Shown: positions 3,624-47,883, counted from the first letter of the stretch. The stretch: 64,000 nucleotides of DNA from an uncultured bacterium (GCA_963825135.1 CAWGRW010000009.1:384001-448000); one strand, 5' to 3'. The notes: generated from the letters alone by a model not told the origin. Translations and numbers: made by a program.

Positions 3624-3793
3624 AAATCCCCCTTAATCTGGTTTCAAATACCCTGTCGCTTCGATCAAGGGATTTCTTTGCTTTTAATCATCTCCGACCA
3701 ATTCCTCCGATTTGTCGGAATTGTTCCCCTTTTCCAAAGGGGGAAAGTAATTTTTGATTCCCTCCTTAGAAATAGGAGGGTTAGGGAGGATTT
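3624..3793. repeat. REP-like CCCCCTT...AAGGGGG / CCCTCCTT...AAGGAGGG composite, interrupted by mini-element copy 1
   Basis: Collinear with the uninterrupted composite at 39367-39448 except for a ~90-bp insert. Confidence 0.85.
3635..3725 (+). mobile_element. ~90-bp REP-inserted mini-element, copy 1
   Basis: AATCTGG + 53 nt + CGACC + AATTCC-loop-GGAATT + GTT. Confidence 0.75.
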
Positions 3794-3816
3794 AATTATT
3801 CCTTTAAAAAATAGAC

Positions 3817-3879
3817 CATGGGACAGATGGGACATACGCGCGGAGTATATACCCGGATCATGTGTCCCAATGTCCCATG
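3817..3879. repeat. Palindromic TGGGACA..TGTCCCA repeat, copy 1
   Basis: catgggacagatgggaca...tatacccggat..tgtgtcccaatgtcccatg. Second copy at 11065-11122. Confidence 0.85.
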
Positions 3880-3896
3880 TGATTCGGGAGGGACGT

Positions 3897-3921
3897 CCTT
3901 AGACAGGCTCAGGACGAACGG
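3897..3921. repeat. REP-like CTTCGACAGGCTCAGGACGAACGG family
   Basis: Similar copies at 47618-47641 and, reversed, near 23897-23917. Confidence 0.65.
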
Positions 3922-4067
3922 GGCAGGCATAGGAGTATGGAGGGGACCGCGCATGAGCAGACATTGTCTGCCGGCAGTTTTATTTTAGTATTAATTTGAT
4001 CTAAAATACTTTTGTCCCGATTGACGGCAATCCTGATTCATTAATCAATAATCAAAGGAGGCTCTTC

Positions 4068-5534
4068 ATGGGTTTATCCAAGGACATGAGCACAGGCTTC
4101 CGGGCCGGACGCCCGGCCGGAAGAGGGAAACACGTGAGGAGCGGGGCGCATGCGGCGCTTGCGCCCCTCCCCTGCCGGATTCATCATTTTATCATGTCCC
4201 TATTCCTGGCCCTGTCGGTCTTTCCATACGCAGTCCAGGCGGCGGGCGGAGACGAGGAAACCGTCAAACCGGGGGGGATACTAACGCTCGAAGACGCCCT
4301 ATCGACCGCGCTTGAGGACAACCTGTCGATAGATAACGCCATACTGCAGGTAGAAAAGGCGGAGGAGGCGGTCAAGGCCGCCCGCACGAAGCTCTACCCG
4401 GAATTCAACGTAAGCGCGTTTGAATCCTACCACCTGACGGACGAGGCGTTCACGTTCAAGAAGGGGGCTTTCGGCGACTTCCCCGGCATAGGCCCTATTC
4501 CCGCCGAGACTACCAAGATCGCGACCGCGCCCAATTTTACGACGTTCCTTAACGCGACCGTGGCGCAGCCCATCACGCAGCTCTACGAAATATCCCTTTT
4601 CATAAAACAGCGCCAGGTGGAGCAGTCCCTCTTCGGCCAGGAGCTCCGGTCAAAGCAGCAGGAGGTCGCCGAGAACGTCAAAAAAGAGTACTACAACATA
4701 TTGAAACTGGAGAGCGAGCTTGCGGCGGAGAGGGAAAAAATAGTCTTCCTCAAGGAGCTCTACGAGCTCGTCAACAGGTACGTCGCCGTAGGCAGGGCTC
4801 TTGAGAGCGAAAGCCTCGACGTGAAAGCGAGACTCGGAAAGGCGGAGTACGACGAGTTCAAGCTCAAAAACGAGACGGCGACCGAGAAGGAGAAAATGAA
4901 CAAGCTCCTCGGGCGGGATGTCGAGACGGAGTTCAGCGTTACGCCCGTGTCCGGGGCGGAGCCTATTACCGTGAGTCCCAAGCGCGCCGAAGAGCTTGCG
5001 CTCGAGCAGCGCCCCGAGGTGAACGCCGCCAGGCTCAACATCAAATTCGCCGAGAACGACGTTAATCTGAAAAAGGCCAAGTACATCCCCGAGGTCGGCG
5101 TACAGCTCCAGTACACGGCCAACTTCAACATAGACCTGCTGCCCGAGAATACATCGACCGTGGCGCTGTTCGCCAAGTGGGATTTTTTCGACTGGGGGCG
5201 GAGACAGACGGAGATTGCGGAGAAAAGGAAGGCCGTCATACAGGCGAAGAACCTGCTGGAAGAGTCCGAATCCGACGTCGTTATTGACGTCAACACAAAG
5301 ATACGTAAGCTTGAGGAGTCGGCCGCGCTGATAGACGTCACGGAGCTCGAGCAGGCGGCCGCGAAAGAGCGTCTCCGCGTCACCATGGACAAGTACAAGC
5401 AGGACTCAGCGATACTCCAGGAGGTGCTGGAGGCCGAGTCGTCTCTCGAAGAAAAGGACAAGGACTATCAGGAAGCCGTGCTTGGGTACTGGACCTCCCG
5501 CGCGGAGCTCGAAAAAGCGATGGGGGAAGAGTAA
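4068..5534 (+). CDS. TolC-family outer membrane efflux factor
   Basis: AAGGAGG SD, hydrophobic signal segment, two OEP-type repeats (LTLEDALSTALEDN; ALEQRPEV), first gene of an OMF-MFP-RND operon. Confidence 0.9.
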   Translation: MGLSKDMSTGFRAGRPAGRGKHVRSGAHAALAPLPCRIHHFIMSLFLALSVFPYAVQAAGGDEETVKPGGILTLEDALSTALEDNLSIDNAILQVEKAEEAVKAARTKLYPEFNVSAFESYHLTDEAFTFKKGAFGDFPGIGPIPAETTKIATAPNFTTFLNATVAQPITQLYEISLFIKQRQVEQSLFGQELRSKQQEVAENVKKEYYNILKLESELAAEREKIVFLKELYELVNRYVAVGRALESESLDVKARLGKAEYDEFKLKNETATEKEKMNKLLGRDVETEFSVTPVSGAEPITVSPKRAEELALEQRPEVNAARLNIKFAENDVNLKKAKYIPEVGVQLQYTANFNIDLLPENTSTVALFAKWDFFDWGRRQTEIAEKRKAVIQAKNLLEESESDVVIDVNTKIRKLEESAALIDVTELEQAAAKERLRVTMDKYKQDSAILQEVLEAESSLEEKDKDYQEAVLGYWTSRAELEKAMGEE

Positions 5535-6653
5535 ATGAACATGAACCGGGCTTACATATACTTTGCTCTGATCGCGGCGGCGGCTTTATGCGCGTGCGGG
5601 GGCGGATACGAAAAGACCGTGACTCCAGTACGGGTCAAGACCGTAAAGCCCGGCGGAACGGACGGCCCCCTCAGGTACACAGCCACCGTAAACCCCTACA
5701 GCCAGGTGAACCTCGACTTCAAGGTAGACGGCTACGTCAGGGAGATACATCAGGTCACGGGCGCCGACGGGCGCGAAAGGGACATACAGGAAGGGGACGA
5801 GGTTGTGAAGGGAGAGGCGCTCGCCTCGATAGACGATACCGAATACCTGTCGAAGCTGATCGAGGCCAAGTCCCAGCTGGGAGAGGCCCAGGCGTCATAC
5901 GCAAAGGACAAGGCCGAGTACGACAGGGCGACGATCCTCTACTCCACCAAGAGCATAACGGTGAACGACTACGACCTCGCGGTGAAGAACTATCAGACCT
6001 CGACCGCACAGGTGGAGGGCGGGAAGGCCCAGGTCATAGGCGCGCAGCAGAACCTCGACTACTGCACGCTGAGGTCGCCTTCGAACGGCGTCATCCTCGA
6101 GCGCGACATAGAGGTCGGGAGCTACGTGAGGCCCGGCTCGACCGGGTTCGTGATCGCTGACGTGACGTCCGTAAAGGTGCTCTTCGCCGTACCCGACGTA
6201 ATACTCGGCGACGTGAAGCTCGGGGAGGAGATGAAGGTCGCGACAGAATCCGTAAAGGACACGTTCTTCAAAGGCAGGGTGACCGCGATTTCCCCCGAGG
6301 CCGGCTCCAGGTCGAGGGTGTTCAACATAGAAATCACCATACCCAATCCCGATAACGTCCTGAAGCCCGGCATGATAGCCTCCCTCGCTCTCGACACGGG
6401 GGGGAAGAGCGCGCCTGTAATCCTGCTCCCGCTCGGCTCGATCGTGCGCTCGTCGTCCGACGGGCGCGAATTCGCCGTGTTCGTTATCGGGGAACGGGAC
6501 GGGAAATCCCTCGCCGCGAAGAGAGACGTGCTGCTCGGAAGCGTATTCGGGAACAGCGTCGCAGTAATCGAGGGGCTCGCCCCGGGCGAGCAGGTGGTGG
6601 TGATGGGGTCGCAGTTAATCCGCGACGGCGAAGAGGTCAGAATAATCCCGTGA
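5535..6653 (+). CDS. RND efflux periplasmic adaptor (MFP), lipoprotein
   Basis: Lipobox-like LCAC, biotinyl-lipoyl-like halves (EGDEVVKGEALA; LRSPSNGVI), LKPGM, GLAPGEQVV. Confidence 0.92.
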   Translation: MNMNRAYIYFALIAAAALCACGGGYEKTVTPVRVKTVKPGGTDGPLRYTATVNPYSQVNLDFKVDGYVREIHQVTGADGRERDIQEGDEVVKGEALASIDDTEYLSKLIEAKSQLGEAQASYAKDKAEYDRATILYSTKSITVNDYDLAVKNYQTSTAQVEGGKAQVIGAQQNLDYCTLRSPSNGVILERDIEVGSYVRPGSTGFVIADVTSVKVLFAVPDVILGDVKLGEEMKVATESVKDTFFKGRVTAISPEAGSRSRVFNIEITIPNPDNVLKPGMIASLALDTGGKSAPVILLPLGSIVRSSSDGREFAVFVIGERDGKSLAAKRDVLLGSVFGNSVAVIEGLAPGEQVVVMGSQLIRDGEEVRIIP

Positions 6654-6713
6654 TTTTAGAGACGGCGCGCAGTCAGTATTCATAGAGCACCGCAAAAACA
6701 ATAACGACCGCAC

Positions 6714-9700
6714 ATGGCGCACAGAGACGACAACGACATAATCGCCAACACGCACAACACGGCCCGCTTCTTCACCGAGAAGCGGCACATATCCTGGGTG
6801 CTGCTCATAGCGGTATTCGCGTGGGGCGTCTACGGCTGGATCAATATGCCCAAGCGGAAGGACCCGGACATTCCGGTTCTCATAGCGCTCGCGACATGTC
6901 CCTGGCCGGGGGCCGACGCCGTAAAGGTCGAGCAGCTCGTAACGAAGCCCATGGAGGAGACCATAGCCCAGAACTCCTACCTCCACGAGCCGGACGCGGG
7001 AAACGAATTCGCGATAAAGTCCATGTCGCTCCCCGGGATGGCCGTAGTCCAGGTGCAGCTCTCGGAAAACCTTAAAGACACGACCCAACAGTTCAACGAC
7101 ATCAACCTCAGGCTCGAATACCTGAACAACAACCTCCCCAAAGGGGCGGGCCCCATAAAATTCAACAGCGGGTTCGGCAATACCGCCGCCATGATGCTCA
7201 CGGTGGCGAGCCCCAGGGAGAGCGGAGTCGAAATCGCCGTGCGCGCCCGGACTATCAATAAGGCCATAGAGTCCGTGCGCTCGCAATTCCCCCCGGACGA
7301 GGCGAGGAGACGCATGACGATGGTAGTCGCGCTTCCGGGCTCCGTCGACCCCGCGAGCCTGGGCACGGTATTCGAGACGCTATCCGCATCGCTCGCTGAG
7401 GACGGCATAGCGAAAGACCCGCGCGTAATCAGCGGGCCCGGATTCATCGCGCTCGACGCCCTGCCCGAAACCGGCCCCGAGGAACTCCTCGAATACGCGC
7501 GCACGTTCTCTTACGAGAAGCTCTCCCTCTCGAGCTTCCACGTGGACGCCTGGGAGCCGGTTCTGATCGGAGACACCGGGGAGACGGAAAAGAAACTCGA
7601 CGACGACGCCGGGGACAAGTACAGCTACAGCGACCTCGAGGACTACACGGAGCTCATAACCGAGGTGCTGCAGTCCGTGGACGAGGTCTCCATAATACAG
7701 CGCTCGGGCGTGCTGCCCCAGCGCGTTTACCTCGACTACTCGCAGGAGGAGCTCGCCTCGTACGGCATCCTGCCCGCAGATATAAAAAAGGCGGTCAACG
7801 CCCGGAACACCGACCTCCCCGGAGGGGAGTTCGCTATCGGCGGCTCGGACGTGCTCGTATATCCGTCGGGAGAGTTCAAGAACGTCAGCGAGATCGGGAG
7901 CGTCGTGATTTCGAAGACCCCCGCGGGCGTGCCCGTTTACCTGAGGGACCTGTTCGAGATCGTAAGGGGCTACGAGAGCCCGCCCACATTTCTCAACTAC
8001 TACTCGCACAGGGACGAAAGCGGGAAATGGCAGAGGTCGAGGGCGGTAACGCTCGCGGTCCAGATGAGGAAGGGGGACCAGATAGCGAAATTCGGCGCTG
8101 CATTGGATCAGGCCAGGGCCGAGCTTGAGCACGTCATCCCTTCGGACCTCATCATAGCCAAGACCTCCGACCAGCCCGAGCAGGTCGAGGACAACATGAG
8201 CCTCTTCCTCGAGGCCCTCTTCGAGGCGATCGTGCTCGTCGTGCTCGTCGCGTGGTTCGGGTTCCGCGAATGGCGCTCCGCCATGCTCATGGCGCTCTCC
8301 ATCCCGATCACGCTTTCGATGACGTTCGGGTTCATGTATCTGCTCGGCATAGATCTGCAGCAGGTCTCTATCGCGACGCTCATCATCGCGCTCGGGCTCC
8401 TCGTGGACGACCCGGTAGTAGCTAACGACGCCATAAAGAGCAACCTCGCGATCGGCCACCCGCCGGCCGTAGCCTCGTGGCTCGGCCCTACGAAGCTCGC
8501 CCGCGCGATAATGTTCGCGACCCTGACCAATATCGTCGCATACCTGCCCTACCTCATGCTCACCGGCACGACGGGGGAGTTCCTCTTCAGCCTCCCGGTC
8601 GTCATGGCGTGCGCCCTGGTATCGTCGAGGCTCGTCTCGATGACGTTCATACCGCTCCTCGGCTACTACCTGCTGAGAGCGGGGACGAAGCCCGAAGAAA
8701 CGATAGAGCAAAAGAGGAGCACCGGGTTTTACGGCTTCTATCACAGGGTCTGCAAAAATGCGATAGAGCACAGGAAGAAGGTGCTCGTATTCTCGCTCCT
8801 CTTCTTCGCGCTGGGGGGTATCGTCGCCTCGCGCCTCGCGTCCTCGTTCTTCCCGGAGGACGTCGAGTACCTCTCCTACGTAGACGTGTGGCTACCGAAC
8901 GAGGCCTCTCTTTCGCGGACGAACGACATCGCGTCCAGGGCCGAGGAGGTCATAAGGGAGACCGCCCGCGCATATGGGGAGAAGGAGCACGGGAAGGGCG
9001 AGGTGCTCGAATCCGTGACGACATTCGTCGGCGGAGGCGGCCCCAGGTTCTGGTACACCCTCGCCCCCCAGCAGCAGCAGACTAACTACGCCCAGATAAT
9101 CATGAAGGTGAGCGACAAGAACGACACGCCCGCGCTCACGCCCTTAATACAGAAGGCCCTTTCGGGCGGCATCCCCGGCGCTGTCTTCGAGGTAAGGCAG
9201 CTCCAGTTAAACCCGGTCGACTACCCGGTGCAGATACACATCTCCGGCAGATCAGATATTAACTCCGGATACGCGCAGGAGGCCGGGGACATACGCACGC
9301 TCAGGAGGCTCGCCGGAGAGCTCGAGGACATACTGAGGAACGTCCCCGAGACCGCGAGCGTGAGGGACGACTGGTTCGAGGACAGCTTCCGCGTGAGGCT
9401 CGACATAGACCCCGACCGCGCGAACCTGTCGGGCATTACGAACGAGGACGTCGCCGTATCGTCGGCTGCCGGGCTGAGCGGCGCCGAAGTCACCGTGTTT
9501 CAGGAGGGCGACAAGCAGATACCGGTGCTCGCGAGGCTCAGGGCCGACGAGAGGGCGGAGCTCTCGGACCTCCGGAACCTCTACGTCTACGCCTCCGACA
9601 ACGAGCAGAAGATACCGCTCCTCGAAGTGTCTTCGGTGAACTACGGGATGGAGGTTTCGAGGATAATGAGGCGCGAGCATTTCAGGACCATTTCGGTCAT

Positions 9701-10343
9701 AGCCTTCCCCGAGCCCGGAGCGTACCCGTCAACTATACTCGCCAAGGCCGGGGATAAGATAAATGCGTTCATAGAATCGCTCCCGCCCGGCTACCAGGTC
9801 GTGTGGGGAGGAGAAAAGGCGAAGCAGATACAGGGGTTCAGGAACCTCACCATAGTCCTTATGATTTCGGTCCTGGCAATATTCATCGCGCTCGTGCTTC
9901 AGTTCAATAACGCGATAAAGCCTTTCCTTGTATTCGCCGCGGTGCCCTACGGGGTGGTGGGGTCCCTCATTGCGCTTACCGTCATGAGGGAGCCCTTCGG
10001 CTTCATGGCTTTCCTCGGCATAGCGAGCCTCGTGGGCGTAATCGTGAGCCACGTCATAGTGCTCTTCGATTTCATAGAGGTGAAGCACGAGGAAGGGGAA
10101 CCGTTCGAGGACTCGCTCCTCGACGCGGGCATAGCGCGTCTGAGGCCGGTGCTGATAACCGTAGGCGCGACGATACTCGCCCTCTTCCCGCTCGCGCTCC
10201 ACGGGGGCCCGCTCTGGCAGCCCCTCTGCTACGCGCAGGTGGGAGGGCTCGCGCTCGCGACTGTGATAGAGCTCGTGCTCGTGCCGGTGTTCTACGCCGT
10301 ATTCGTTCTCGACTTGAAGATTATAAAGTGGGGGAAAGATTAA
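6714..10343 (+). CDS. RND efflux transporter permease (AcrB/AcrD/AcrF-like)
   Basis: 1209 aa, two periplasmic halves, GLLVDD in TM4, RLRPVLIT in TM11. Confidence 0.95.
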   Translation: MAHRDDNDIIANTHNTARFFTEKRHISWVLLIAVFAWGVYGWINMPKRKDPDIPVLIALATCPWPGADAVKVEQLVTKPMEETIAQNSYLHEPDAGNEFAIKSMSLPGMAVVQVQLSENLKDTTQQFNDINLRLEYLNNNLPKGAGPIKFNSGFGNTAAMMLTVASPRESGVEIAVRARTINKAIESVRSQFPPDEARRRMTMVVALPGSVDPASLGTVFETLSASLAEDGIAKDPRVISGPGFIALDALPETGPEELLEYARTFSYEKLSLSSFHVDAWEPVLIGDTGETEKKLDDDAGDKYSYSDLEDYTELITEVLQSVDEVSIIQRSGVLPQRVYLDYSQEELASYGILPADIKKAVNARNTDLPGGEFAIGGSDVLVYPSGEFKNVSEIGSVVISKTPAGVPVYLRDLFEIVRGYESPPTFLNYYSHRDESGKWQRSRAVTLAVQMRKGDQIAKFGAALDQARAELEHVIPSDLIIAKTSDQPEQVEDNMSLFLEALFEAIVLVVLVAWFGFREWRSAMLMALSIPITLSMTFGFMYLLGIDLQQVSIATLIIALGLLVDDPVVANDAIKSNLAIGHPPAVASWLGPTKLARAIMFATLTNIVAYLPYLMLTGTTGEFLFSLPVVMACALVSSRLVSMTFIPLLGYYLLRAGTKPEETIEQKRSTGFYGFYHRVCKNAIEHRKKVLVFSLLFFALGGIVASRLASSFFPEDVEYLSYVDVWLPNEASLSRTNDIASRAEEVIRETARAYGEKEHGKGEVLESVTTFVGGGGPRFWYTLAPQQQQTNYAQIIMKVSDKNDTPALTPLIQKALSGGIPGAVFEVRQLQLNPVDYPVQIHISGRSDINSGYAQEAGDIRTLRRLAGELEDILRNVPETASVRDDWFEDSFRVRLDIDPDRANLSGITNEDVAVSSAAGLSGAEVTVFQEGDKQIPVLARLRADERAELSDLRNLYVYASDNEQKIPLLEVSSVNYGMEVSRIMRREHFRTISVIAFPEPGAYPSTILAKAGDKINAFIESLPPGYQVVWGGEKAKQIQGFRNLTIVLMISVLAIFIALVLQFNNAIKPFLVFAAVPYGVVGSLIALTVMREPFGFMAFLGIASLVGVIVSHVIVLFDFIEVKHEEGEPFEDSLLDAGIARLRPVLITVGATILALFPLALHGGPLWQPLCYAQVGGLALATVIELVLVPVFYAVFVLDLKIIKWGKD

Positions 10344-10351
10344 ATCTTCAT

Positions 10352-10423
10352 CCTCCCTCCTTTATAAAAAGACGGAGTTAAAAGCATTTTCCCCCTTTAG
10401 CAAAGGGGGATTCAGGGGGATTT
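10352..10423. repeat. REP-like CCCCCTT...AAGGGGG family
   Basis: ccccctttagcaaagggggattcagggggattt. Confidence 0.8.
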
Positions 10424-10545
10424 ATCTTTTCCGAAATTTCGGTACAAATATTCCCGGTAGTGTTGTGGGATTCGGTTATCAGAGTGGGATCTTTTGGGTT
10501 ATATTATAAAGTTAATATGAACCTAAAAAACTTATAGGAGCATTA

Positions 10546-11040
10546 ATGGGATCGAATCAAACAATTATAGCACCCTTAGTAAACGCTAATATTAGACCCT
10601 ATGCATTTCAATTTTATGCAAGAGACTTCTATAAGGCGTATAAGAAACACAAAGACGGTCTTCCTTTTTCTCCAGCGAGATTTTTTTTGCTTTCCCGAAG
10701 CATAGAGCTTGCAGCAAAAAGCCTTTATCTTGCTGATGGAATGCCGGCGGAAGATTTAAATAATATCAATCACGACCTCAGCAAAGCATGTGATCCTGAT
10801 ATTCTTAAAAAATTCGGCGTAAGTTTATCATCGGACCAAATAAGTGAATTATTGAAGGCTAATGACTATTATAAGCATAAAGGATTTGAGTATTTTTTAT
10901 ATAAGTATGGTAACTGGAAAAGTAGTGACTTCGGGAGCTCTGGGCCACAAATGGCGTTAACAGGTTGGCCGAATCTTCCGGATGTAAACATTCTTGAGTC
11001 TATAGTTGATTTGCTTCTGTCAATAAAACTGCCGGATTAA
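10546..11040 (+). CDS. Low-GC hypothetical protein, HEPN-like fold
   Basis: AGGAG SD, AT-rich codons, SIELAAKSLYL...HDL pattern typical of HEPN helical bundles. Confidence 0.6.
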   Translation: MGSNQTIIAPLVNANIRPYAFQFYARDFYKAYKKHKDGLPFSPARFFLLSRSIELAAKSLYLADGMPAEDLNNINHDLSKACDPDILKKFGVSLSSDQISELLKANDYYKHKGFEYFLYKYGNWKSSDFGSSGPQMALTGWPNLPDVNILESIVDLLLSIKLPD

Positions 11041-11064
11041 TCTTATTACATCGTATTCATATAT

Positions 11065-11122
11065 TGGGACAATGGGACAGACGGGCAGGGTATATACCCG
11101 GATATTGTGTCCCGATGTCCCA
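11065..11122. repeat. Palindromic TGGGACA..TGTCCCA repeat, copy 2
   Basis: Near-identical to 3817-3879 and in the same orientation. Confidence 0.85.
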
Positions 11123-11166
11123 TGGGAGAATAACAGGGATATTAATGTACACCCCCCACCCTACCT

Positions 11167-11255
11167 AATTTGGCTCAGGCATCAATGAGCCGGAATTGAG
11201 CACAATGACGCTTTCGTTTTCACAGCGACCTGCTTCTCGCTCGCTCGAAGCAGTT
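11167..11255 (+). mobile_element. ~90-bp REP-inserted mini-element, copy 2
   Basis: AATTTGG + 52 nt + CGACC + TGCTTC-tcgctcgctc-GAAGCA + GTT, inside a CCCACCCTACCT...CCCCTCCAATAGAGGGAGAGGG REP. Confidence 0.8.
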
Positions 11256-11329
11256 CCCCTCCAATAGAGGGAGAGGGAAAGAAAACTGTGTCGCATCTGT
11301 CGGATTCTACCGCGATCTGGCACGCCGCA

Positions 11330-13906: not shown

Positions 13907-13925
13907 GAGACGTTCCCTCCCTTGT

Positions 13926-25681: not shown

Positions 25682-25883
25682 TTCATACCTCGGACACACA
25701 GGTGTGTTTTATGATTTCTTTGTGATCTCTCTGCAATCCCTGATATCGTCACCCTGAACTTGTTTCAGGGCCACATCTTTAAACCAACCCCAAAGAACCC
25801 CAGTAATTTTATATGGGTTTTACGAAGCATCAAGTTTGGATTAGCTTGCACTCCAGCGCACAAGAAGGTACGAAATAGATCTT

Positions 25884-25916
25884 CCCCCTTAGAAAAAGGG
25901 GGATTGAGGGGGATTT
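25884..25916. repeat. REP-like CCCCCTT...AAGGGGG family
   Basis: cccccttagaaaaagggggattgagggggattt, nearly identical to 47478-47510. Confidence 0.85.
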
Positions 25917-25991
25917 AAATTCATATTTTTGAGAGAAAAAATTAAGTGAAAGGAAATGAATAAAAGATAAATCCACCCTCACCCTGACCCT

Positions 25992-26081
25992 AATTTGGTT
26001 TTGGCAGCGTTGAGTCGGAAGTTAAGGTGCTTCTGTGTCTCTGATCTGGGTCAACCGAATGCTCACTTGCTCACATTCGTT
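25992..26081 (+). mobile_element. ~90-bp REP-inserted mini-element, copy 3
   Basis: AATTTGG + 53 nt + CAACC + GAATG-ctcacttgctca-CATTC + GTT, inside a CCCTCACCCTGACCCT...CCCTCAAGGGAGAGGG REP. Confidence 0.8.
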
Positions 26082-26154
26082 CCCTCAAGGGAGAGGGAAA
26101 CAACTTCATAGAGTTGGCCGGGCAGTAGAGAAACGCAGCAACCGTAAAACCACG

Positions 26155-27420: not shown

Positions 27421-27630
27421 ATCCGTCTTTTTCTTTCCGACATTACAGAATTTGCGTTAAGAAAATCGCGTGTTTAAGCGTTAAGAAATCTTTGAGCAGT
27501 CCAATTGAAAGATTTTAGCTTAAACACAAGATTTTTAGCGTAATTCTGTAGTCGGATGATTTTTGCTTCTTTTCATCTAGGAAAAGAAGTATACAAAAAA
27601 CATCCTTTCACCGTTCTTTGTCTTTTCGTC
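27421..27630. repeat. AT-rich dispersed repeat with ~120-nt imperfect hairpin, copy 1
   Basis: CCGAC(27437)...GTCGG(27555) nested inverted repeats, then CTTCTTTTC..GAAAAGAAG hairpins. Near-identical copy at 41251-41550. Confidence 0.9.
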
Positions 27631-27668
27631 TAGGAAAAGAGGAAATAAATATCCTGCCTTTCTCTTTC

Positions 27669-33881: not shown

Positions 33882-33928
33882 TGTCATTTCGACCGGAGGG
33901 AGAAATCCGTTATTGAAGCGAAATGACA
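33882..33928. repeat. REP-like TGTCATTTCG...CGAAATGACA element
   Basis: Inverted repeat; the same family hosts mini-element copy 5 at 41143-41254. Confidence 0.75.
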
Positions 33929-37660: not shown

Positions 37661-37690
37661 ACTCAAAAAAGGTACACCCTCACCCTACCT

Positions 37691-37782: not shown

Positions 37783-37932
37783 CCCTCAAGGGAGAGGGAA
37801 ATACTTTGGATGAACGATCATGTCTAGCTGATGAAGCAGTGAATCATTGTTACGCACCCCCTCACATTAGAAAAAAATCCCCGATATGGCATAATTATTT
37901 CTCCCTAAACACATAAGCCAAGGAGGAGTTTC

Positions 37933-39366: not shown

Positions 39367-39448
39367 AAATCCCCCTGAATCCCCCTTTTCCAAAGGGGGA
39401 GAGTGACTTTAATTCCCTCCTTAGAAAAAGGAGGGTTAGGGAGGATTT
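39367..39448. repeat. Uninterrupted CCCCCTT/CCCTCCTT REP composite
   Basis: Empty-site equivalent of 3624-3793. Confidence 0.85.
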
Positions 39449-40277: not shown

Positions 40278-40537
40278 TGCGCTGAATGCGCGCCCGAATC
40301 ACAGACGGCTGCCCGCTTCTTCCGGGCCTGAAACCGATACATATCCACTATCTATATTTACACGAACTATATTTACACGAACCCGCGCGTAACAGCCGCG
40401 GCATAACCCCTGCCATTTAAAGGAAAACCCGTACCGGGAAACTCGCGAGACCGGCCGCCCGGAATTACCGGGATCGAGCGTATATGAATCCAATGGCCGA
40501 TTTCGCGTGTCTAAGACCGTATATAAGGAGAACAAGA

Positions 40538-40927: not shown

Positions 40928-40974
40928 TACGTGGAAGTTATCGTAACCGGCGGCATTTCATCCGTGTATCGAAA

Positions 40975-41065
40975 TCAGAAATCTTCATAGGCGAGCCTGA
41001 ACGCTTCCTTCCCGTCCTTCTCTATAATGTCCTTATGCGCGAGCAGCACCCGGTCGAAGGGCGGA
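40975..41065 (-). pseudogene. Probable 3' gene remnant (DUF4336-like C-terminus)
   Basis: PFDRVLLAHKDIIEKDGKEAFRLAYEDF* in host-like codons; upstream sequence is REP/mini-element DNA. Confidence 0.4.
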
Positions 41066-41155
41066 GTTTTTCCTTCCCCGCCATTACACAATTTGCGGCG
41101 GGTGAGCACCCGCAGGCGTACGACCTCGAGCATCTCCTTTCCCGTCATTTCGAAC

Positions 41156-41245
41156 AACAGTTGCAAGCGCGCGCGCAACTGGTCGCCGTTGGTTGATTGC
41201 AAATAACCTGAATCGACATCGTATATAATCCGCGTAAACCAAAAC
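41156..41245 (-). mobile_element. ~90-bp REP-inserted mini-element, copy 5 (minus strand)
   Basis: Minus strand GTTTTGG + 53 nt + CGACC + AGTTGC-loop-GCAACT + GTT, inside a GTCATTTCGAAC...GAGAAATCC REP. Confidence 0.8.
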
Positions 41246-41250
41246 GAGAA

Positions 41251-41550
41251 ATCCGTCTTTCGTCTTTCTCTTCCCGACATTACAGAATTTGCGTTAAGAA
41301 AATCGCGTGTTTAAGCGTAAAGAAATCTTTGAGCAGTCCAATTGAAAGATTTTAGCTTAAACATAAGATTTTTAGCAAATTATGTAGTCGGATGATTTTT
41401 GCTTCTTTTCATCAAGGAAAAGAAGGAATTAAATTAGCCTTTGTCTTTTCCTTCCTTTGCCTTTTCTTTTTCGAATGATCACACTATGTATGTTCATCAA
41501 GGAAAAGAAGGATAAAAAAAATATCCTTTCTCCTTTCTTTGTCTTTTCAT
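41251..41550. repeat. AT-rich dispersed repeat with ~120-nt hairpin, copy 2
   Basis: CCGAC(41274)...GTCGG(41391); near-identical to 27437-27589. Confidence 0.9.
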
Positions 41551-41583
41551 TTGACCCACATTCCCTCTTTCGAAAACGAAATA

Positions 41584-42162
41584 TCAAAATAGCCTCCCCT
41601 CCCGGTACGCGTGATATATGGACTTCATGTGCTCGTCCACGCCCGGGGCGAGGAACTGGAGAAGGAGGCATTCGAGCGACGAAACGACCAGGAGCGCGAG
41701 CGCCGCGTAGAAAAACGCCTCGTTGTAACCTATGACGAACGTGTATATGACGAACACGTACGCGGCTACTCCAGCGGCCTTGGTCAGATAGAGGTGGAGA
41801 TTCGCGATCCTCCTGAACTTTATCCACCCGAGGAGGATCGAGGCCGCCTCGATCGCTATCCATGCGCCGAGTACGAGCGCGTGGCCGGTAATGATCTCAG
41901 GCTTAAGCAGCAGGAGAGCGCCCAGGGCCGATATTTCCATGAGCGTATCCGCTATGGAATCGAGCCTGCTCCCGTAAGCCGTGGCGATGTTCCGCCTCCG
42001 CGCGATAAAGCCGTCGAGCACGTCGGTGAGACCCGCCGCGAGGAGCGCGATCCCTGTGTAGAACGGCAGCCCCGATGCCGCGAGCGCCAGGACTACCGGG
42101 ACCAAGAGGAGCCTCGCGAAGCAGAGCAGATCGGGGACTGATTTAAAGGATATGTATTTCAT
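41584..42162 (-). CDS. CDP-alcohol phosphatidyltransferase family
   Basis: TDVLDGFIARR...GSRLDSIAD motif. Confidence 0.92.
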   Translation of the reverse strand: MKYISFKSVPDLLCFARLLLVPVVLALAASGLPFYTGIALLAAGLTDVLDGFIARRRNIATAYGSRLDSIADTLMEISALGALLLLKPEIITGHALVLGAWIAIEAASILLGWIKFRRIANLHLYLTKAAGVAAYVFVIYTFVIGYNEAFFYAALALLVVSSLECLLLQFLAPGVDEHMKSIYHAYREGRLF

Positions 42163-42318
42163 CCCGGGCAGTGAGGCTTAACCCCCTGATAAAATTGCAT
42201 CATGGTTCCGGGGGACCTTGCCGTTTTATTAGCATGTGCGTCTCTTAACACTCCATTAACACATCTATCCGTCTAATATGAAAGGAATATTAATATGTGC
42301 AGTTGCGAATAAAAACCC

Positions 42319-42348
42319 TTGACAACGCCCGTTTCCTGTTTATATTGT
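42319..42348 (+). promoter_or_regulatory. sigma70 promoter of the phasin-like gene
   Basis: TTGACA followed by TATATT/TATTGT at 16-18 nt. Confidence 0.55.
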
Positions 42349-42378
42349 ACATAGAAATCAAAATCAGGAGGTAATACC

Positions 42379-42816
42379 ATGTCAGAAACATCCAAGAAAG
42401 TCGCTTCAAAGGTTAAGGAATTTTCGGAGCCCGCAAAGGAATTTACGGGCCTCGTAAAAGAGAATTATTTAAACGGCCTGGATTTCACGTTCTCGCTCTT
42501 CGAGCAGAACATGAAGGCATTCGGCGCACAGGCGGAGCATATGCTCGGGCTCGAGAAGGAGTTCATATCGAACGTAAGCGGGTTCTACAAGGATTTCCCG
42601 AAGGACCTTCCGTTCGTAAAGGATCTTCCTTATGACGGCAGCGCCAAAAAGGTCACCGAGCAGCTCGACCGCTATATTTCATACCGGAAGGAGCAGATCG
42701 AGACCGTAAAGAGCACGGCCGAGAAGTTCGCGAAGGACGCCCGCACCATGGCGCAGGAAAACATCGAAAGGGCTTTTTCGCTTTTCGGTGAGTACTTCAA
42801 CCTCTTCGGCGCCTGA
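42379..42816 (+). CDS. Phasin-like (PHA granule-associated) amphipathic helical protein
   Basis: AGGAGG SD, all-helical amphipathic pattern, C-terminal AQENIERAF. Confidence 0.55.
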   Translation: MSETSKKVASKVKEFSEPAKEFTGLVKENYLNGLDFTFSLFEQNMKAFGAQAEHMLGLEKEFISNVSGFYKDFPKDLPFVKDLPYDGSAKKVTEQLDRYISYRKEQIETVKSTAEKFAKDARTMAQENIERAFSLFGEYFNLFGA

Positions 42817-43033
42817 TACTCCCACTGTATTTCTCACATCCGGACTCCTAAAAGGTCGATGATGGAATTCCGGGCCGGTGACAGGCTCACCCGCCCGGAA
42901 TATTTTCCCCGTGCTTCCCGTTCAAGCGGCTGTTTTAATCCGCACCCCGGGATTAGCCCTGCTTCCGAATTTCGATTATAATGTTGCCATTGACCGCCAT
43001 GCCGGTCCAACAAATATCCCCGGGGGTAATAAA

Positions 43034-43315
43034 TTGATCCGCCGTCTTCTCCTTATATCTCTGACCGTCATATCCATCCTCCCCGCCGTATGCTGCAGCA
43101 CGTTAAAGACGGGGAAGGACATCGCCATCGACAACCCGATGAGCGAGTCAAAAAACAAGCAGTCCCTGAACGAGGCGAGGCAGCAGGTCGAGAAATCGAG
43201 GAACGCGCTTGACCAGTGCATGAAGGCGAGCTCGGGCGACCAGTCGAGGTGCGGGACCGAAAAAGCGGCCTACGACCAGGACGTACAGAAATACGTCTCC
43301 CTCCAGTCCGAATAA
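43034..43315 (+). CDS. Small putative lipoprotein
   Basis: TTG start, signal ending AVCC, later Cys pair C-x9-C. Confidence 0.65.
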   Translation: MIRRLLLISLTVISILPAVCCSTLKTGKDIAIDNPMSESKNKQSLNEARQQVEKSRNALDQCMKASSGDQSRCGTEKAAYDQDVQKYVSLQSE

Positions 43316-43382
43316 GGCGCTGGGAGACGAGACACCGCCCCGGAGGCCATTGAAAGACTGCGCGGAACAAGGAGGGTTCTCG

Positions 43383-43796
43383 ATGAAAGTCTTGTTTTCC
43401 GTTCTTACCGTTTTATTTATCCTCTTTTCGGCTTACGCCTCGTCTGGGGCGGACGCCGGTCAAACTCAGGCAAGCCCCGCCCCCCCTCAGGACGGCGTCC
43501 GGAAGATCGAGATAGTCGTAGACAGCTACTCCTTCGACCCGGACGCCATAACCGTGACCGCAGGAAAGCCCGTCGAATTGACTCTCAGGAGCATCACATC
43601 CCTGGTCCCCCATAATTTCACGATCGACGACCCCGCCTCGGGACTCGACCTCAACGTCGATATTCCCTCGGGCGAAGACGTTACCGTCACGTTCACCCCA
43701 CAGAAGACCGGCAGGTTCCAGTTCTACTGCGCGAAGAAAGGCCTCTTCGGCTCCCATCTGAAAAAGGGGATGAAGGGCACGCTGATAGTGAATTGA
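43383..43796 (+). CDS. Periplasmic cupredoxin-domain protein
   Basis: Signal peptide; type-1 Cu ligands PHNF, FYC, H..KGM. Confidence 0.88.
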   Translation: MKVLFSVLTVLFILFSAYASSGADAGQTQASPAPPQDGVRKIEIVVDSYSFDPDAITVTAGKPVELTLRSITSLVPHNFTIDDPASGLDLNVDIPSGEDVTVTFTPQKTGRFQFYCAKKGLFGSHLKKGMKGTLIVN

Positions 43797-43847
43797 AATT
43801 TCGGGACAATTCCGCGATCTAATCACCACGCTTCACGACGAACGCAT

Positions 43848-44855
43848 ATGGTTAAATTAAGGCTTATAAAAAGGGACGAAAAAATAGCAATAGCCATACC
43901 GACAAAAAACCGTCCTTCCTACCTTGCCGCTTTACTGGCCTCTCTGCTTAACCAAACATACACGAACTTTATGATCGTAATTAACGACCAGAGCGATTCG
44001 CCGGTCGAGCGCGACGACGTGCTGACGGATCTTTTTACGCTCGCAAAGACCGTCGGGCACGAGATTAAAATCATCCGTACTGAAGGCGGCTGGAAAAGGC
44101 ACCAGCAGGCGATGGAAGCGGTGCCGGAATCGATAGAGTTTATTCTGAGGATAGACGACGATATGCTGCCGGACTCAGGTTTCCTTGAAAACATACTGAA
44201 GCCGTTCCGTTTTTTCGCCGACAGGCCGCTGGCAGCCGTGGGCGGATGTTGTCCGGATCCGAAAATGAAAAAGGTAAGCCTGGACGTGAAGCTGACGGAA
44301 AGGTCGTGGACGTTGACTCTTGATGAACTGACATGGAGATTGCAGGGCTACCGCTATTATAATGATCCGGAGGTCGTAGAAGTCGAGAGTCTCATCGGGG
44401 GGGCGATATGTTACCGCCGCGGAGCGGTAGAGGAGGCGGGGGGCTGGGCCGTTGAGGGGTACTCCGACCAGGCCTATCGGGAGGAGAGCGACCTATGCGC
44501 GAGGCTCGTCGAAAAAAACTACACTCTCATGGTCACAACGGAGGCCCTGGCGTGGCATCTTCTCGCCCCCGGAGGGGGTGCGAGAAAGTACCTAAAAACC
44601 CCCGGGGGTAATTTATTGGTATCGGACAAAACCGGTATGGAATCCGACGACAAGCTCTTCAACGAGAGAATGAAAGCCATCCTCGAAAAAAGAGGCCCGA
44701 CTGTGGGCGAGCCGAAGCGTTATAAAATTAGTAATCTGGAGAAAAACGTCTTTGTGGGATCCCCTCTTCGAACTTTAAAGGGGAGAACGCTTGGGATAAT
44801 CGAAAGCAGGGTTCTAAGAAAGTTTAGAGGGCTTTGCCGGTATTTCACAAAATAA
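43848..44855 (+). CDS. Glycosyltransferase family 2
   Basis: IAIPTKNR, RIDDD, REESDL. Confidence 0.9.
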   Translation: MVKLRLIKRDEKIAIAIPTKNRPSYLAALLASLLNQTYTNFMIVINDQSDSPVERDDVLTDLFTLAKTVGHEIKIIRTEGGWKRHQQAMEAVPESIEFILRIDDDMLPDSGFLENILKPFRFFADRPLAAVGGCCPDPKMKKVSLDVKLTERSWTLTLDELTWRLQGYRYYNDPEVVEVESLIGGAICYRRGAVEEAGGWAVEGYSDQAYREESDLCARLVEKNYTLMVTTEALAWHLLAPGGGARKYLKTPGGNLLVSDKTGMESDDKLFNERMKAILEKRGPTVGEPKRYKISNLEKNVFVGSPLRTLKGRTLGIIESRVLRKFRGLCRYFTK

Positions 44856-44890
44856 TTGCATCGATCGAAACCCGAGACGCGGAGCGTTAC

Positions 44891-45616
44891 GTGAGTTACA
44901 TAACGAGGGTCATTAAACGGGCGGCTAATCTGGCCGGCTTCGACATCCGGAGGCTGGGCCATGATTCGAATGCGGTCCGCGAGCTGGTGAAAGGGATCAG
45001 GCGTTTCGAAATCGATCTTATCCTGGACGTAGGCGCGAACGAGGGGCAATTCGCGGAAGAGCTCCTCTCGCTCGGATACAAAGGCCGTATGGTCAGCTTC
45101 GAGCCGCTTTCAGAGGCCCACCGGAAGTTAGAGCGGGCCGCGGGGCGCTATTCCGGATGGACCGTGCATCCCCGCTGTGCGCTCGGCGCAGAGGACGGCG
45201 AGGTCACGATAAACATCGCCGGCAACTCCGTATCCTCTTCCATACTGCCGATGATGGCCTCGCACGTATCGGCATCCGCGGGCTCGGCCTATATCGGCGC
45301 CGAGAAGACGCCCGTTTACAGGCTGGACACGGCCGCCGCGCCCTATCTGCGGGATGCGCTCAGGCCGTTCCTGAAAATCGACACTCAGGGTTACGAATGG
45401 CAGGTGCTCGACGGGGCGGGCGGGATACTCCCGCGCATGAGCGGCGTGCTCTGCGAGCTCTCGCTCGTGCCGCTTTACGAGGGCCAGCGCCTCTGGCTCG
45501 ATCTTGTCCGCCGCCTCGAGGGCGAGGGCTTTACCCTCTGGTCGATGCACGGGGCATTCACCGATCCCGGGGACGGGCGCACGCTTCAGGCGGACGCGGC
45601 GTTTTTCAGGACGTGA
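44891..45616 (+). CDS. FkbM-family methyltransferase
   Basis: LDVGANEGQF, SFEP, LKIDTQGYE. Confidence 0.92.
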   Translation: MSYITRVIKRAANLAGFDIRRLGHDSNAVRELVKGIRRFEIDLILDVGANEGQFAEELLSLGYKGRMVSFEPLSEAHRKLERAAGRYSGWTVHPRCALGAEDGEVTINIAGNSVSSSILPMMASHVSASAGSAYIGAEKTPVYRLDTAAAPYLRDALRPFLKIDTQGYEWQVLDGAGGILPRMSGVLCELSLVPLYEGQRLWLDLVRRLEGEGFTLWSMHGAFTDPGDGRTLQADAAFFRT

Positions 45617-45640
45617 GCAGGGGCATCCCCTTCGCCCCCC

Positions 45641-47155
45641 TCAGAACCTGATCTGGAAGTCGAACATGTAATCGGCTTCGGCGATTCCCTTGGTCGGCCC
45701 GTAGACGGGGACCTGGATCGCGACACCGGGGCTCCATTTGTTCCCGAACCTTATGGCCGGAGCGATGAAGAGGTCCGTGCCGCCGCCGGGGCCGTCGTCG
45801 GTCGTGATCGTGTATCCGTCGAACTCGCAGGAGAGAGTGGGCGAACCCGTCATGGGGACGTTAAGCCCCGCGGCCGCGTGGTAGTTGATCCTGAACTCGA
45901 AGTCCTGCCCTTCGAAGTGCTTGGCGTTGAATATGAAGTCCGTGCCCACTGCGCCCTGGATGCTGAAGGGCCCCTTCCACGCCCCCGCCGACAGGTACGG
46001 CGAAACCGTCGCCGCCCGGTAGAGGTACATCGGGAAGTCCCTCCTGTACTTAACAATCTGCTGGAGCCTCTGCTGGTCGTCCGTGAACGTGGTCGGCATG
46101 TACGCCTCGAGCCCCGCCGCTATGGCGAAGTTCTTCGATTTGGCCGCGAGCGCTTTCACTCCGATCAGGAGGTTGCCGAACTCGAACCCGTCCCTTATCT
46201 GCGTATCCCCGTCCTTCACGTTGTCGACGCCGCCGTAGGGCACGTCCGTGTATATGCCCCAGAAATTGCTCTCCGAAGGGAACTCGAGCCTAGTGGGATA
46301 GAGTATGAACTTCCCGCCCACGTCCTTCTTGAGCCTTATCAGCTCCAGGCTGGGCGCCACCCTGCCGAGCGGCAGAGGGGGCTCGAAAAAGCGCGGGTAC
46401 GCGAGATCGAGCGCCCTGCCCTTCGTCGTGGATATGGTGAACTGGCCCTGGTACTGGAACGAGCCCGTTACCGGGTTTATGAGTCCGAAGGACGTGTCCC
46501 GGACGAATAGCCTCGTGGGGTTGGTGATATATGCGGCGACGTGCGCGGCCTTCGAGTCCTGCTCGATGAGCCAGTTGGAGAGCTGCTCCATGCTCCATCC
46601 GAGCGGGATGCCGAGAGCGGGGGTCACTATGAGATCGACGCCCGAGGGCCTGACGGCCCAACCCTCGATGCCGTATTCGAACAGCGTGCTCTGTATGATC
46701 GAGCCCAGGGCGGACGCCCAGACGCTGTGCCCCCTCGCCCTGTAGAACTGGTATGAGAGCATGCCGAAGAACGGGTGGAGCACCCAGTTGACGACGAAAT
46801 CGTCCTGGTCGTTCCAGAGCGGGTCGCTCGTGAGGTTGTGCCAGAAGGTGTGGAACGAGCCGTCGAATATCTTGATGTTCTTGTCCCTCACCCACCAGAG
46901 CCTCCCCGCCCACTGCACGCCGTACCAGATCGCCGTGTCGCCCATATAGGTCTTGAAGCCGGGGGGCCGGAGGTTAGGATTCGGAGTGGGCTTCGGTTTC
47001 GCGTCCCCGACAGGCGTTACGGCGTCGCCCGGATCGTGCGGCTTGCCCGCGTCTTCCGCGGAAAAATTGTCGGGCGGGGTTTGGGCGTATGAGACAACAG
47101 GGGCAGCGAGCTGTATTAATGCCAGCAGAATAAGACCGGCTGTTTTCGCCATCAT
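45641..47155 (-). CDS. DUF3943-like exported protein (paralog 2)
   Basis: DDFVVNWVLHP, STLFEYGIEG, PSGVDLIVTP; C-terminal beta-rich region ending DFQIRF. Confidence 0.8.
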   Translation of the reverse strand: MMAKTAGLILLALIQLAAPVVSYAQTPPDNFSAEDAGKPHDPGDAVTPVGDAKPKPTPNPNLRPPGFKTYMGDTAIWYGVQWAGRLWWVRDKNIKIFDGSFHTFWHNLTSDPLWNDQDDFVVNWVLHPFFGMLSYQFYRARGHSVWASALGSIIQSTLFEYGIEGWAVRPSGVDLIVTPALGIPLGWSMEQLSNWLIEQDSKAAHVAAYITNPTRLFVRDTSFGLINPVTGSFQYQGQFTISTTKGRALDLAYPRFFEPPLPLGRVAPSLELIRLKKDVGGKFILYPTRLEFPSESNFWGIYTDVPYGGVDNVKDGDTQIRDGFEFGNLLIGVKALAAKSKNFAIAAGLEAYMPTTFTDDQQRLQQIVKYRRDFPMYLYRAATVSPYLSAGAWKGPFSIQGAVGTDFIFNAKHFEGQDFEFRINYHAAAGLNVPMTGSPTLSCEFDGYTITTDDGPGGGTDLFIAPAIRFGNKWSPGVAIQVPVYGPTKGIAEADYMFDFQIRF

Positions 47156-47374
47156 CCCGACCCTCCCGGACGGTAATTTGCCGAAACCCGGACGGCTCAT
47201 AACGCTCGGGACGAATGTCCCGCCGTCCGGCTCCTGACACATTCTAACAATAATTGACCGGAAATAAAAGAAGAATTATCAGCCGGCGCGATATTCGCCC
47301 CTGCCCGGAGAAATTTCCGGAAAATCAAAATCGTCTCTTGCGCAATGCATATACATCATATAGTTTATATATTA

Positions 47375-47465
47375 ACGGGCGTCCTGCACTCGCGGGCCGC
47401 CGAAAGTGTAAAGGAGAAAATACAGGGTCGGGCACATGCTGCCGCCCGGTGTTTTCTCCTTTTTG
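47375..47465 (+). ncRNA. Candidate small RNA (two hairpins plus U-tract)
   Basis: TTGCGC-N17-TAGTTT upstream; GGCG..CGCC hairpin; AAGGAGAAAATAC...GTGTTTTCTCCTT hairpin followed by a T-run; no convincing ORF. Confidence 0.35.
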
Positions 47466-47477
47466 GTTCTTTATTTT

Positions 47478-47559
47478 CCCCCTTAGAAAAAGGGGGATTA
47501 AGGGGGATTTAAAAAGAATAAAAGAAAATCCTCCCTGGCCCTCCTTTTCCTAAGGAGGG
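47478..47559. repeat. REP-like CCCCCTT / CCCTCCTT family
   Basis: Same motifs as 25884 and 39367. Confidence 0.85.
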
Positions 47560-47709
47560 AATTAAATAAAAAAGAAAAATGAAAGAAACCAACAGGGAGG
47601 GGATTGGAGGAGGCGTTCTTCGACAGGTTCAGGACAAACGGGTTTTTTAAATTCCCAATCGGCGTCAGGAATGGCAGAATACAAAAACGAGATTGCCGCG
47701 CTGCTTCGT

Positions 47710-47883
47710 AATTTGGTTTCTGTGACTTAGGGGCGAAGATGAAGGGGCTTATTTGCAATCAGTCCGGGGCGACCGATTCGTTTTGCCTTCACACGGTCTA
47801 TGCATGGAATATCGGCATTTGAGTAATCAGCGGGAGTCGGCCTATTTCTCGCATGCTCGAAACAGTACCAGCTCGCAATCGTT
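47710..47883 (+). mobile_element. Mini-element copy 6 (outer), interrupted by copy 7
   Basis: AATTTGG + 53 nt + CGACC + GATT[insert]..GCTC-GCAATC + GTT, inside a GAGATTGCC...GCAATGACA REP. Confidence 0.75.
47780..47867 (+). mobile_element. Mini-element copy 7 (nested, degenerate)
   Basis: GTTTTGC + 51 nt + CGGCC + TATTTC-tcgcatgctc-GAAACA + GTA. Confidence 0.65.

Follow-up and report, generated by a model that had tools for sequence, protein, structure and literature searches.

A ~95-base hairpin repeat of uncultured Dadabacteria-type bacteria, apparently undescribed, may be a non-autonomous mobile element

Repetitive extragenic palindromic (REP) sequences, bacterial interspersed mosaic elements (BIMEs) and REPINs are described as high-copy extragenic hairpin elements, often clustered, that are thought to be mobilised by a single-copy RAYT; a REPIN comprises two inverted REPs and a spacer, and REPIN populations are vertically persistent (PMC3337134, PMC3116915, PMC3184786). 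Miniature inverted-repeat transposable elements (MITEs) such as Correia, ERIC and RUP are described as intergenic, high-copy, non-coding elements of about 100 nucleotides (nt), defined by terminal inverted repeats and target duplications (PMC3184786). Here we report on an element of about 95 nt, which we named R1, in a 64,000-nt stretch of DNA from an uncultured bacterium (GCA_963825135.1, CAWGRW010000009.1:384001-448000; hereafter the window) and in related loci. R1 is apparently an undescribed repeat of uncultured Dadabacteria-type bacteria, and we interpret it, with about even confidence, as a mobile DNA element that is non-autonomous, by now mostly old, and particular to this lineage. The window is ordinary chromosome, encoding a malate synthase-isocitrate lyase fusion, an RND efflux pump, PntAB, NuoF, fumarase and HisRS.

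An initial annotation of the window had proposed seven copies, all of which were found at the places given. The core lengths it had listed (53, 52, 53, 53, 53, 53 and 51 nt) were also confirmed, measured between (T/C)TG(G/C) and C(G/A)(A/G)CC. End-motif variants were CTGG in copy c1, CAACC in c3, and TTGC together with CGGCC in c7. The stem pairing proposed for c1 to c5 and c7 was correct, and c6 proved to be split by c7 into a body at 47708-47774 and a hairpin remainder at 47871-47883. With filters off, a covariance model of R1 trained on 30 copies returned exactly seven matches in the window (88.5 to 32.7 bits, E ≤ 5e-7), and the next-best match scored 8.9 bits (E = 2.7). The copies are as follows, the strand being the one that folds.

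3633..3728, minus strand: c1, 66.7 bits with the model, hairpin AATTCC/GGAATT
11165..11258, minus strand: c2, 72.9 bits, stem TGCTTC/GAAGCA
25990..26084, minus strand: c3, 88.5 bits
37689..37785, minus strand: c4, 76.5 bits; the syntenic locus L004 is without R1 here
41153..41247, plus strand: c5, 59.2 bits, the sole copy on the opposite window strand
47708..47774, minus strand: main part of c6, 32.7 bits, interrupted by c7
47778..47870, minus strand: c7, 53.6 bits, nested in the c6 hairpin loop; the outer loop is cut after GAGC (folding strand)
47871..47883, minus strand: hairpin remainder of c6, comprising the loop start and one arm

Whether the layout exceeds chance depended on the part considered. 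The end motifs alone did not: the loose pattern TTGG-N49-56-CRACC gave 5 matches in the window against 7.9 expected, and 92 out of 100 shuffles reached 5. By contrast, the full pattern, in which a perfect hairpin of at least 4 bp is followed by GT, gave 3 matches, whereas 200 simulations of the window with a first-order Markov model averaged 0.025. Copy c4 is absent from these strict matches because of a single G·T pair.

To sample R1 more widely, we scanned a genome collection with the hairpin of c2-c4, keeping the loop and adjoining bases fixed and the stem free. The scan gave 37 matches in 36 loci, and 24 of the 36 loci were accepted as true members on other features; c2-c4 themselves were not returned, so the collection lacks the window's own genome. 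The 24 member loci come from nine metagenome-assembled genomes labelled Candidatus Dadabacteria, Thermodesulfobacteriota, 'delta proteobacterium' or 'Spirochaetia'. Dadabacteria are a class within Thermodesulfobacteriota (NCBI taxonomy), and the differently labelled assemblies are linked to each other and to the window by synteny, with 41-93% amino-acid identity. To our knowledge, Dadabacteria are known solely from metagenomes. Across the window and the 24 loci (366 kb), the model identified 87 copies at E ≤ 1e-4, often clustered, at a density of about one copy per 4-9 kb. The 12 remaining, unrelated loci (186 kb), which served as a negative control, contained no full-length or convincing copy; their three weak partial matches scored 13.5-18.4 bits (E 0.017-0.4), and each fell where the seed pattern had matched. 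The seed demanded one loop type and GTTCCC, which inflates the frequency of both in the 24 seed copies and would let lineages with other loops escape the scan.

On its folding strand R1 consists of AAC, a 7-bp hairpin, GGTCGC, a core of about 53 nt, and CCAAA plus 4 nt. Its length is narrow (92-97 nt in 74 out of 87 copies). The hairpin stem is variable and its 10-nt loop, GAGCRAGYGA, is conserved. The hairpin had been said to covary, which was borne out: among 86 distinct copies, 92.2% of hairpin cells were paired compared with 70.7% in shuffles, and 133 cells were changed on both sides compared with 37, a value reached by none of 500 shuffles. As a control, sliding the partner column left 20-49% pairing. 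Related cores bear six or seven different stems; the stem thus changes by compensation within lineages. We also detected an extra covarying pair within the 10-nt loop (G-C 42, G·U 20, A-U 12 and C-G 2 on the folding strand), which allows these 10 nt to be interpreted as two G·A pairs, one R-Y pair and a loop of four bases.

The hairpin was the sole helix that RNAalifold found in R1, and a covariation scan of all columns returned just this hairpin and the in-loop pair. The best helix per core averaged 4.65, compared with 4.66 for permuted partners, indicating no conserved fold in the core. Copies folded one at a time gave weak z-scores, from -0.09 to -2.47 on one strand and from -0.13 to -2.60 on the other. 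The initial annotation had supposed that selection acts on length, ends and structure rather than on sequence. This stood for structure and length, and failed for the core sequence: cores of different genomes are 85-89% identical within subfamilies, against an overall median of about 0.5. We also considered a guide-RNA role. Across the rest of the 366 kb, cores had no surplus of matches of 14 nt or longer (12/79 versus 35/395 for shuffled cores), and one 47-nt match was an unmasked truncated R1 copy.

Further analysis revealed that R1 folds on the complement of the strand on which it had been annotated. On the annotated strand, the 589 hairpin cells included 37 A·C or C·A, 4 G·T or T·G and 9 other non-Watson-Crick combinations, and among 41 distinct stem haplotypes A·C occurred in 20 and G·T in 4 (p = 0.0015). 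The A·C cells become G·U wobbles on the complementary strand. The helix that closes R1 between its flanks agrees with the hairpin and the in-loop pair, with G·U in 101 cases and A·C in 42 on the folding strand. Deamination, with its usual bias towards the G-rich strand, would yield the opposite wobble pattern; we therefore infer that the wobble skew reflects selection for pairing of the complementary strand. RNAalifold energies were -0.29 kcal/mol on the annotated strand (30 copies) and -10.4 kcal/mol on its complement (68 copies with flanks), values that are indicative at most since the two copy sets differ.

The annotated claim that R1 always lies in palindromes held up. The best Watson-Crick helix joining the two flanks averaged 5.78 bp in 81 copies, compared with 4.76 ± 0.10 bp for permuted partners. 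The flanks fall into several classes, and the inverted repeats belong to the host hairpin, outside R1. The claimed absence of target duplication and of terminal inverted repeats was likewise confirmed: the longest direct repeat spanning the junctions had a mean of 4.04 nt against 3.77 ± 0.10 nt for permuted partners (78 copies), and the AAC... and ...CCAAA ends are not mutually inverted. Host arms and empty sites in the window are listed below, with the strand where one is assigned.

3623..3637: host palindrome arm at c1, forming an 8-bp closing helix with its partner at 3726-3747
3726..3747: host hairpin adjoining c1, partner of 3623..3637
11150..11165: C-rich host arm at c2, partner at 11256-11281
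11256..11281: host hairpin and G-rich arm at c2
25974..25989: C-rich host arm at c3, partner at 26082-26100
26082..26100: host hairpin and G-rich arm at c3
37675..37689: C-rich host arm at c4, partner at 37783-37801
37783..37801: host hairpin and G-rich arm at c4
41141..41152: host hairpin arm at c5, partner at 41248-41270
41248..41270: host hairpin arm and T-rich tail at c5
47687..47707: host arm at c6, partner at 47884-47893
47884..47893: host arm at c6, partner of 47687..47707
39367..39403: empty site, a three-arm palindrome of the c1 type with the neighbouring repeat of c1, without R1
33885..33907, plus strand: empty site, hairpin arms as in the c5 host with an R1-type loop
47526..47563: empty three-arm palindrome of a class that hosts R1 in relatives
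41323..41352, plus strand: 'D2' repeat-unit hairpin without R1, second copy at 27486-27515; the L004 orthologue bears R1

Every flank class that we searched for also occurs without R1. In the loci, empty hosts included eight short hairpins with the outer motifs TGTCAT and ATCTCGT. R1 sits in a fixed orientation in hairpins that were already there: those of several short palindromic repeat classes, that of a longer repeat unit, and the loops of fellow R1 copies; the bases 5' of AAC vary between flank classes. Six copies occupy a hairpin loop that belongs to another copy, and at two loci the nesting is threefold. In nested cases the outer loop is cut after base 4 or base 8, and 5-10 nt of the outer loop and arm are missing.

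Other repeats accompany these sites. Two short three-arm palindrome families (C-arm, loop, G-arm, short linker, second G-arm) correspond to classes that host R1; copies of one lie at 10369-10424, 25862-25917 and 47456-47511, and of the other at 3753-3793 and 39408-39448. A 56-nt palindromic repeat, D11, is present at 3827-3882 and 11072-11127 (86% identical), near c1 and c2 at differing relative positions. Solo units made of AAC and an R1-type hairpin, without the GGTCGC-core part, occur in TGTCAT-type flanks at L016 16267-16288, L018 1443-1464 and L035 15904-15925; these could be truncated copies or precursors.

Orthologous comparison provided evidence of turnover. Locus L004 is syntenic with window positions 43350-52142 (77-93% amino-acid identity) and beyond, and at each of the four sites that can be compared the two differ in whether R1 is present or in its subfamily. 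At the c6/c7 site, L004 has a single R1 of another subfamily and another hairpin class, plus empty hairpins. The c5 site is occupied in L004 by a plain hairpin and a T-run, and the c4 site by a repeat unit of about 240 nt without R1. Elsewhere in L004 the hairpin of this unit bears R1, and the two copies of the unit in the window have a 14-nt loop. One pair of copies from the same assembly, L036:9939 and L004:10001, is 98% identical within R1. Their 20-nt flanks, of the same class, are 55% identical ungapped, and the sequences beyond are unrelated (26%).

In the window, the ~240-nt unit lies at 27424-27662 and 41261-41548, in pieces that are 97% and 89% identical, and it is also present in L004 and L036. 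It bears promoter-like hexamers and the hairpin (27486-27515 and 41323-41352) that hosts R1 in relatives. The hairpin at the c5-equivalent site has the loop GAGCTTGTCGA and recurs at L004 16855-16877, L036 6347-6369, L005 1781-1803 and L006 11745-11767; with its T-run in L004 and L036 it is terminator-like.

Crude calling of open reading frames (ORFs) allowed the intergenic class to be assigned for 76 out of 88 copies, with 31 between convergent, 33 between tandem and 12 between divergent genes; the remaining 12 are located at the ends of contigs. Between tandem genes, the folding strand was co-oriented with the genes in 14 cases and opposed in 19, which is no bias. Orientation followed GC skew more closely. 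With elements masked, and with the 18 loci of |GC skew| ≥ 0.02 kept (seven sources fell below the cut), the annotated strand was the G-rich strand for 59 copies and the C-rich strand for 9; 14 loci agreed, 2 disagreed and 2 were ties. The majority gene strand was a weaker predictor, matching the annotated strand for just 31 copies versus 18. Skew and majority gene strand agree in most loci, which supports the assumption that skew marks the direction of replication. If that usual relation applies here, most copies have their folding strand on what is presumed to be the leading-strand template. In sedentary chromosomal integrons, attC sites are reported to have their bottom strands on the leading-strand template (25/30), a polarity that limits folding and stabilises arrays and is the same as that of the R1 folding strand (PMC5371416).

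The initial annotation had recognised no described family, and the searches were in line with this. Rfam 15 had no match to any copy; in a scan of the window at gathering scores its sole match was a riboswitch at 57124-57215, and no match at E ≤ 5 overlapped a copy. Lenient Rfam scans of c3 and c2 gave chance matches alone (E 1.8-8), with families differing between the two copies. A blastn search with c3 against plasmids and phages gave no match. In the literature on Dadabacteria we found no report on genome repeats, judged by titles and the starts of abstracts.

Domain searches covered 242 ORFs of the window and the loci rather than whole genomes, at thresholds of E ≤ 1e-3 for 23, E ≤ 1e-8 for 95 and E ≤ 1e-10 for 124 of them; the loci have 245 ORFs that reach 110 aa, and 52 of these lay outside the searches. 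None of the 242 encoded a transposase, integrase, reverse transcriptase or HUH domain. The initial annotation had suggested an HUH/RAYT-, IS91- or IS110-like enzyme acting in trans; no gene of the HUH, IS91 or IS110 type was present in this set. Five matches to the hairpin portion of the model were considered as possible ends of an autonomous R1 version and rejected, as they adjoin ordinary genes or ORFs without a family and no transposase was among the ORFs scanned.

R1 belongs with the structured intergenic repeats and non-autonomous elements, and each described system that we compared (MITE, REP/REPIN, IS200/IS605 derivative, attC array and group II intron) failed in at least one defining feature. 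What is unusual is the combination of insertion into hairpin loops, self-nesting, a loop that is conserved while its stem varies, and a strand polarity that reverses the one of IS200/IS605. R1 shares the size, intergenic place, copy number and lack of coding capacity of MITEs, but not their terminal inverted repeats or target duplications. Like REPs and REPINs it forms high-copy, extragenic, hairpin-based clusters, and its short host palindromes look REP-like. However, a REP is a short imperfect palindrome, and the two inverted REPs of a REPIN make one long hairpin, whereas R1 is not a palindrome: its 53-nt core is unpaired and only the host arms are palindromic. REPs have a conserved tetranucleotide, GTAG, at the palindrome foot; some class-a flanks of R1 (c4, c2, L004 and L005) start with GTAG on the folding strand, and others start with TTAG, CTAG or TCAG. 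In R1, moreover, the loop is conserved while the stem varies, and copies nest in the loops of other copies. The REPIN system has a RAYT (Y1 HUH) gene with the repeats on its flanks; no RAYT gene was found among the 242 ORFs.

The IS200/IS605 family and its ORF-less derivatives transpose by single-strand 'peel and paste'. These elements resemble R1 in lacking inverted ends and target duplication, and in their subterminal hairpin, strand specificity and replication-linked orientation (PMC5027513). They differ in carrying subterminal hairpins at both ends, whereas R1 has one conserved hairpin at one end, and in inserting 3' of a constant tetra- or pentanucleotide, whereas R1 has no constant target beside its end and enters hairpin loops with the loss of a few target bases. 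Their active strand is the lagging-strand template; the folding strand of R1 is the C-rich strand in the 59 versus 9 copies above, skew being assumed to give the direction of replication. Sites of the attC type are similar in that one folded strand is recognised by structure, with very variable sequence and family-specific length. The attC consensus ends RYYYAAC and GTTRRRY are unmatched in R1, which has GTTCC in 41 out of 87 copies. Cassettes with attC sites form a same-orientation array beside an integrase gene; by contrast, R1 is dispersed among housekeeping genes, with no integrase among the 242 ORFs. IS1397, ISKpn1 and some IS110/IS1111 members target REP hairpins, and IS1397 targets their loops. 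These are full insertion sequences with their own transposase, whereas R1 is a non-coding 95 nt whose ends are unlike those of any insertion sequence seen here. Elements of the IS91 or rolling-circle type insert next to GAAC or CAAG and have a subterminal hairpin at one end. In R1, GTTC (GAAC on the folding strand) stands at the boundary in 50 out of 87 copies, and the loop holds CAAG or CGAG, which nested copies enter 1 nt after or before; no Y2 transposase was found among the 242 ORFs.

The initial annotation had offered a non-autonomous mobile element moved as single-stranded DNA or RNA. Its mobile character gained support from orthologous presence and absence, nesting, and the near-identical pair with diverged flanks, and R1 most likely relies on an enzyme encoded elsewhere rather than being a gene itself. 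We prefer a mobile single-strand element because of the abundance, intergenic position, empty and filled sites, nesting, turnover, recent copy, one-strand structure and link to skew that R1 displays. In such a mechanism, a protein encoded elsewhere would recognise the hairpin and loop on one strand, as single-stranded DNA or, less likely, as RNA, and the same protein would join an R1 copy into a second folded hairpin at its loop. The skew-linked strand bias suggests that the process, or the survival of copies, would be tied to replication. The class of the enzyme is a guess: a RAYT/IS200-type or Rep-type HUH nuclease might serve, as might a recombinase that recognises structure. More tentatively, R1 may be the footprint of an undescribed single-strand mobile element whose integration site is a folded hairpin loop, recognised by shape and by a 10-nt loop motif rather than by duplex sequence, with a putative loop-cutting enzyme driving it. 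Targeting of loop shape would explain why unrelated palindrome families and R1's own hairpin have been invaded, with double and triple nesting. In that case the lasting placement of the folding strand on the leading-strand template would be stabilising, as in chromosomal integrons.

Several observations weigh against a mobile element. Most copies are old, with a within-genome median pairwise identity of 0.53; just seven same-genome pairs reach at least 85% identity, four of them inside larger duplicated units. We saw neither a circle junction nor an excision footprint, and the 242 ORFs provided no enzyme. Core conservation between genomes and the tight length also fit a host function. Copies related within a cluster are non-independent, so counts per copy overstate the evidence. 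In the window itself (skew -0.019, below the cut), six out of seven copies lie on the slightly C-rich strand, counter to the trend for the annotated strand, and the orientation of IS608/ISDra2 relative to GC skew is reported to be the opposite of that of R1 (PMC5027513).

The strongest of the rival explanations, which we regard as a minority possibility, is an architectural repeat of the REP/BIME kind kept by the host, in which hairpins and a fixed-length linker would bind nucleoid or replication proteins as DNA. R1 would then have spread by recombination or gene conversion with no dedicated transposase, and the long R1 and short 'empty' forms would be linker variants of one mosaic. The length is fixed though no fold is conserved in the core, a number of hairpin classes occur both short and long, copies cluster in intergenic mosaics, and they are enriched in convergent intergenic regions (31 versus 12 divergent). 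Orientation tracks GC skew like that of polar chromosomal motifs, no transposase was present among the ORFs scanned, and the flanks of L033:11206 are chimeric, which points to recombination between copies. However, tolerance of G·U on one strand in three helices argues for a single-stranded form rather than duplex DNA, and nesting in loops and a 98%-identical pair with diverged flanks are hard to obtain by recombination alone. We know of no protein that binds R1.

Somewhat less probable is that R1 and its closing helix are small structured RNAs, an alternative that the initial annotation had named, or elements within transcripts of the folding strand, such as processing or stability signals or antisense insulators. 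The exchange of G-C, G·U and A-U pairs is typical of RNA helices, the loop would suit an RNA if taken for a tetraloop with tandem G·A pairs and one R-Y pair, the 3' flanks on the folding strand are T-rich in many copies, and cores are conserved between genomes. By contrast, a density of one copy per 4-9 kb with nesting, the failure to keep copies at orthologous sites, the lack of an Rfam match, the unfolded core and the absence of excess core matches argue against such RNAs. No promoter-like or terminator-like site overlapped c4-c7 (the scan covered these copies and left out c1-c3), and the 14 co-oriented and 19 opposed copies in tandem intergenic regions gave no support. An RNA role and a REP/BIME-like architectural role are not mutually exclusive. 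Finally, a retro-element relic or a degenerate element resembling an intron, propagated via RNA by a reverse transcriptase in trans on the model of stem-loop-targeting group II introns, would fit the hairpin target, oriented insertion, missing target duplication and RNA-like wobble tolerance, yet is very improbable given that no intron family or domain, including the catalytic domain V/VI structure, was matched in Rfam on either strand, that one hairpin is the sole conserved fold in 95 nt, and that no reverse transcriptase was found among the 242 ORFs.

Other features of the window were observed alongside R1. At positions 1-3300 (minus strand), a single frame that runs past the window end contains malate synthase and isocitrate lyase domains, so the glyoxylate-shunt enzymes appear fused. 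A c-di-GMP-I-GGC riboswitch aptamer at 57124-57215 (minus strand; 67.2 bits, gathering score 59) lies upstream of a gene for a 1390-aa TPR protein at 52755-56927 (minus strand). Paralogous DUF3943 genes at 45641-47242 and 47918-49432 (both minus strand) flank the c6/c7 region, and the pair is conserved in L004. A probable 57-aa gene at 40975-41147 (minus strand) starts just past c5 and shows strong nucleotide conservation in L004.

For the genomes that carry it, R1 has practical consequences. Occurring every ~4-9 kb, it fragments assemblies, and several copies lie at contig ends. It shapes intergenic regions and can pass for ORFs, as with the 101-aa ORF at 40975-41280, which runs through c5 and is probably an artefact. 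R1 is also a clean case of a repeat whose sequence drifts while its hairpin structure, loop motif and length persist, and whose copies enter each other's loops. If the enzyme is found, it may provide a structure-guided tool for inserting single-stranded DNA, and would offer a new point of comparison for the REPIN-RAYT, IS200/IS605 and integron attC systems.

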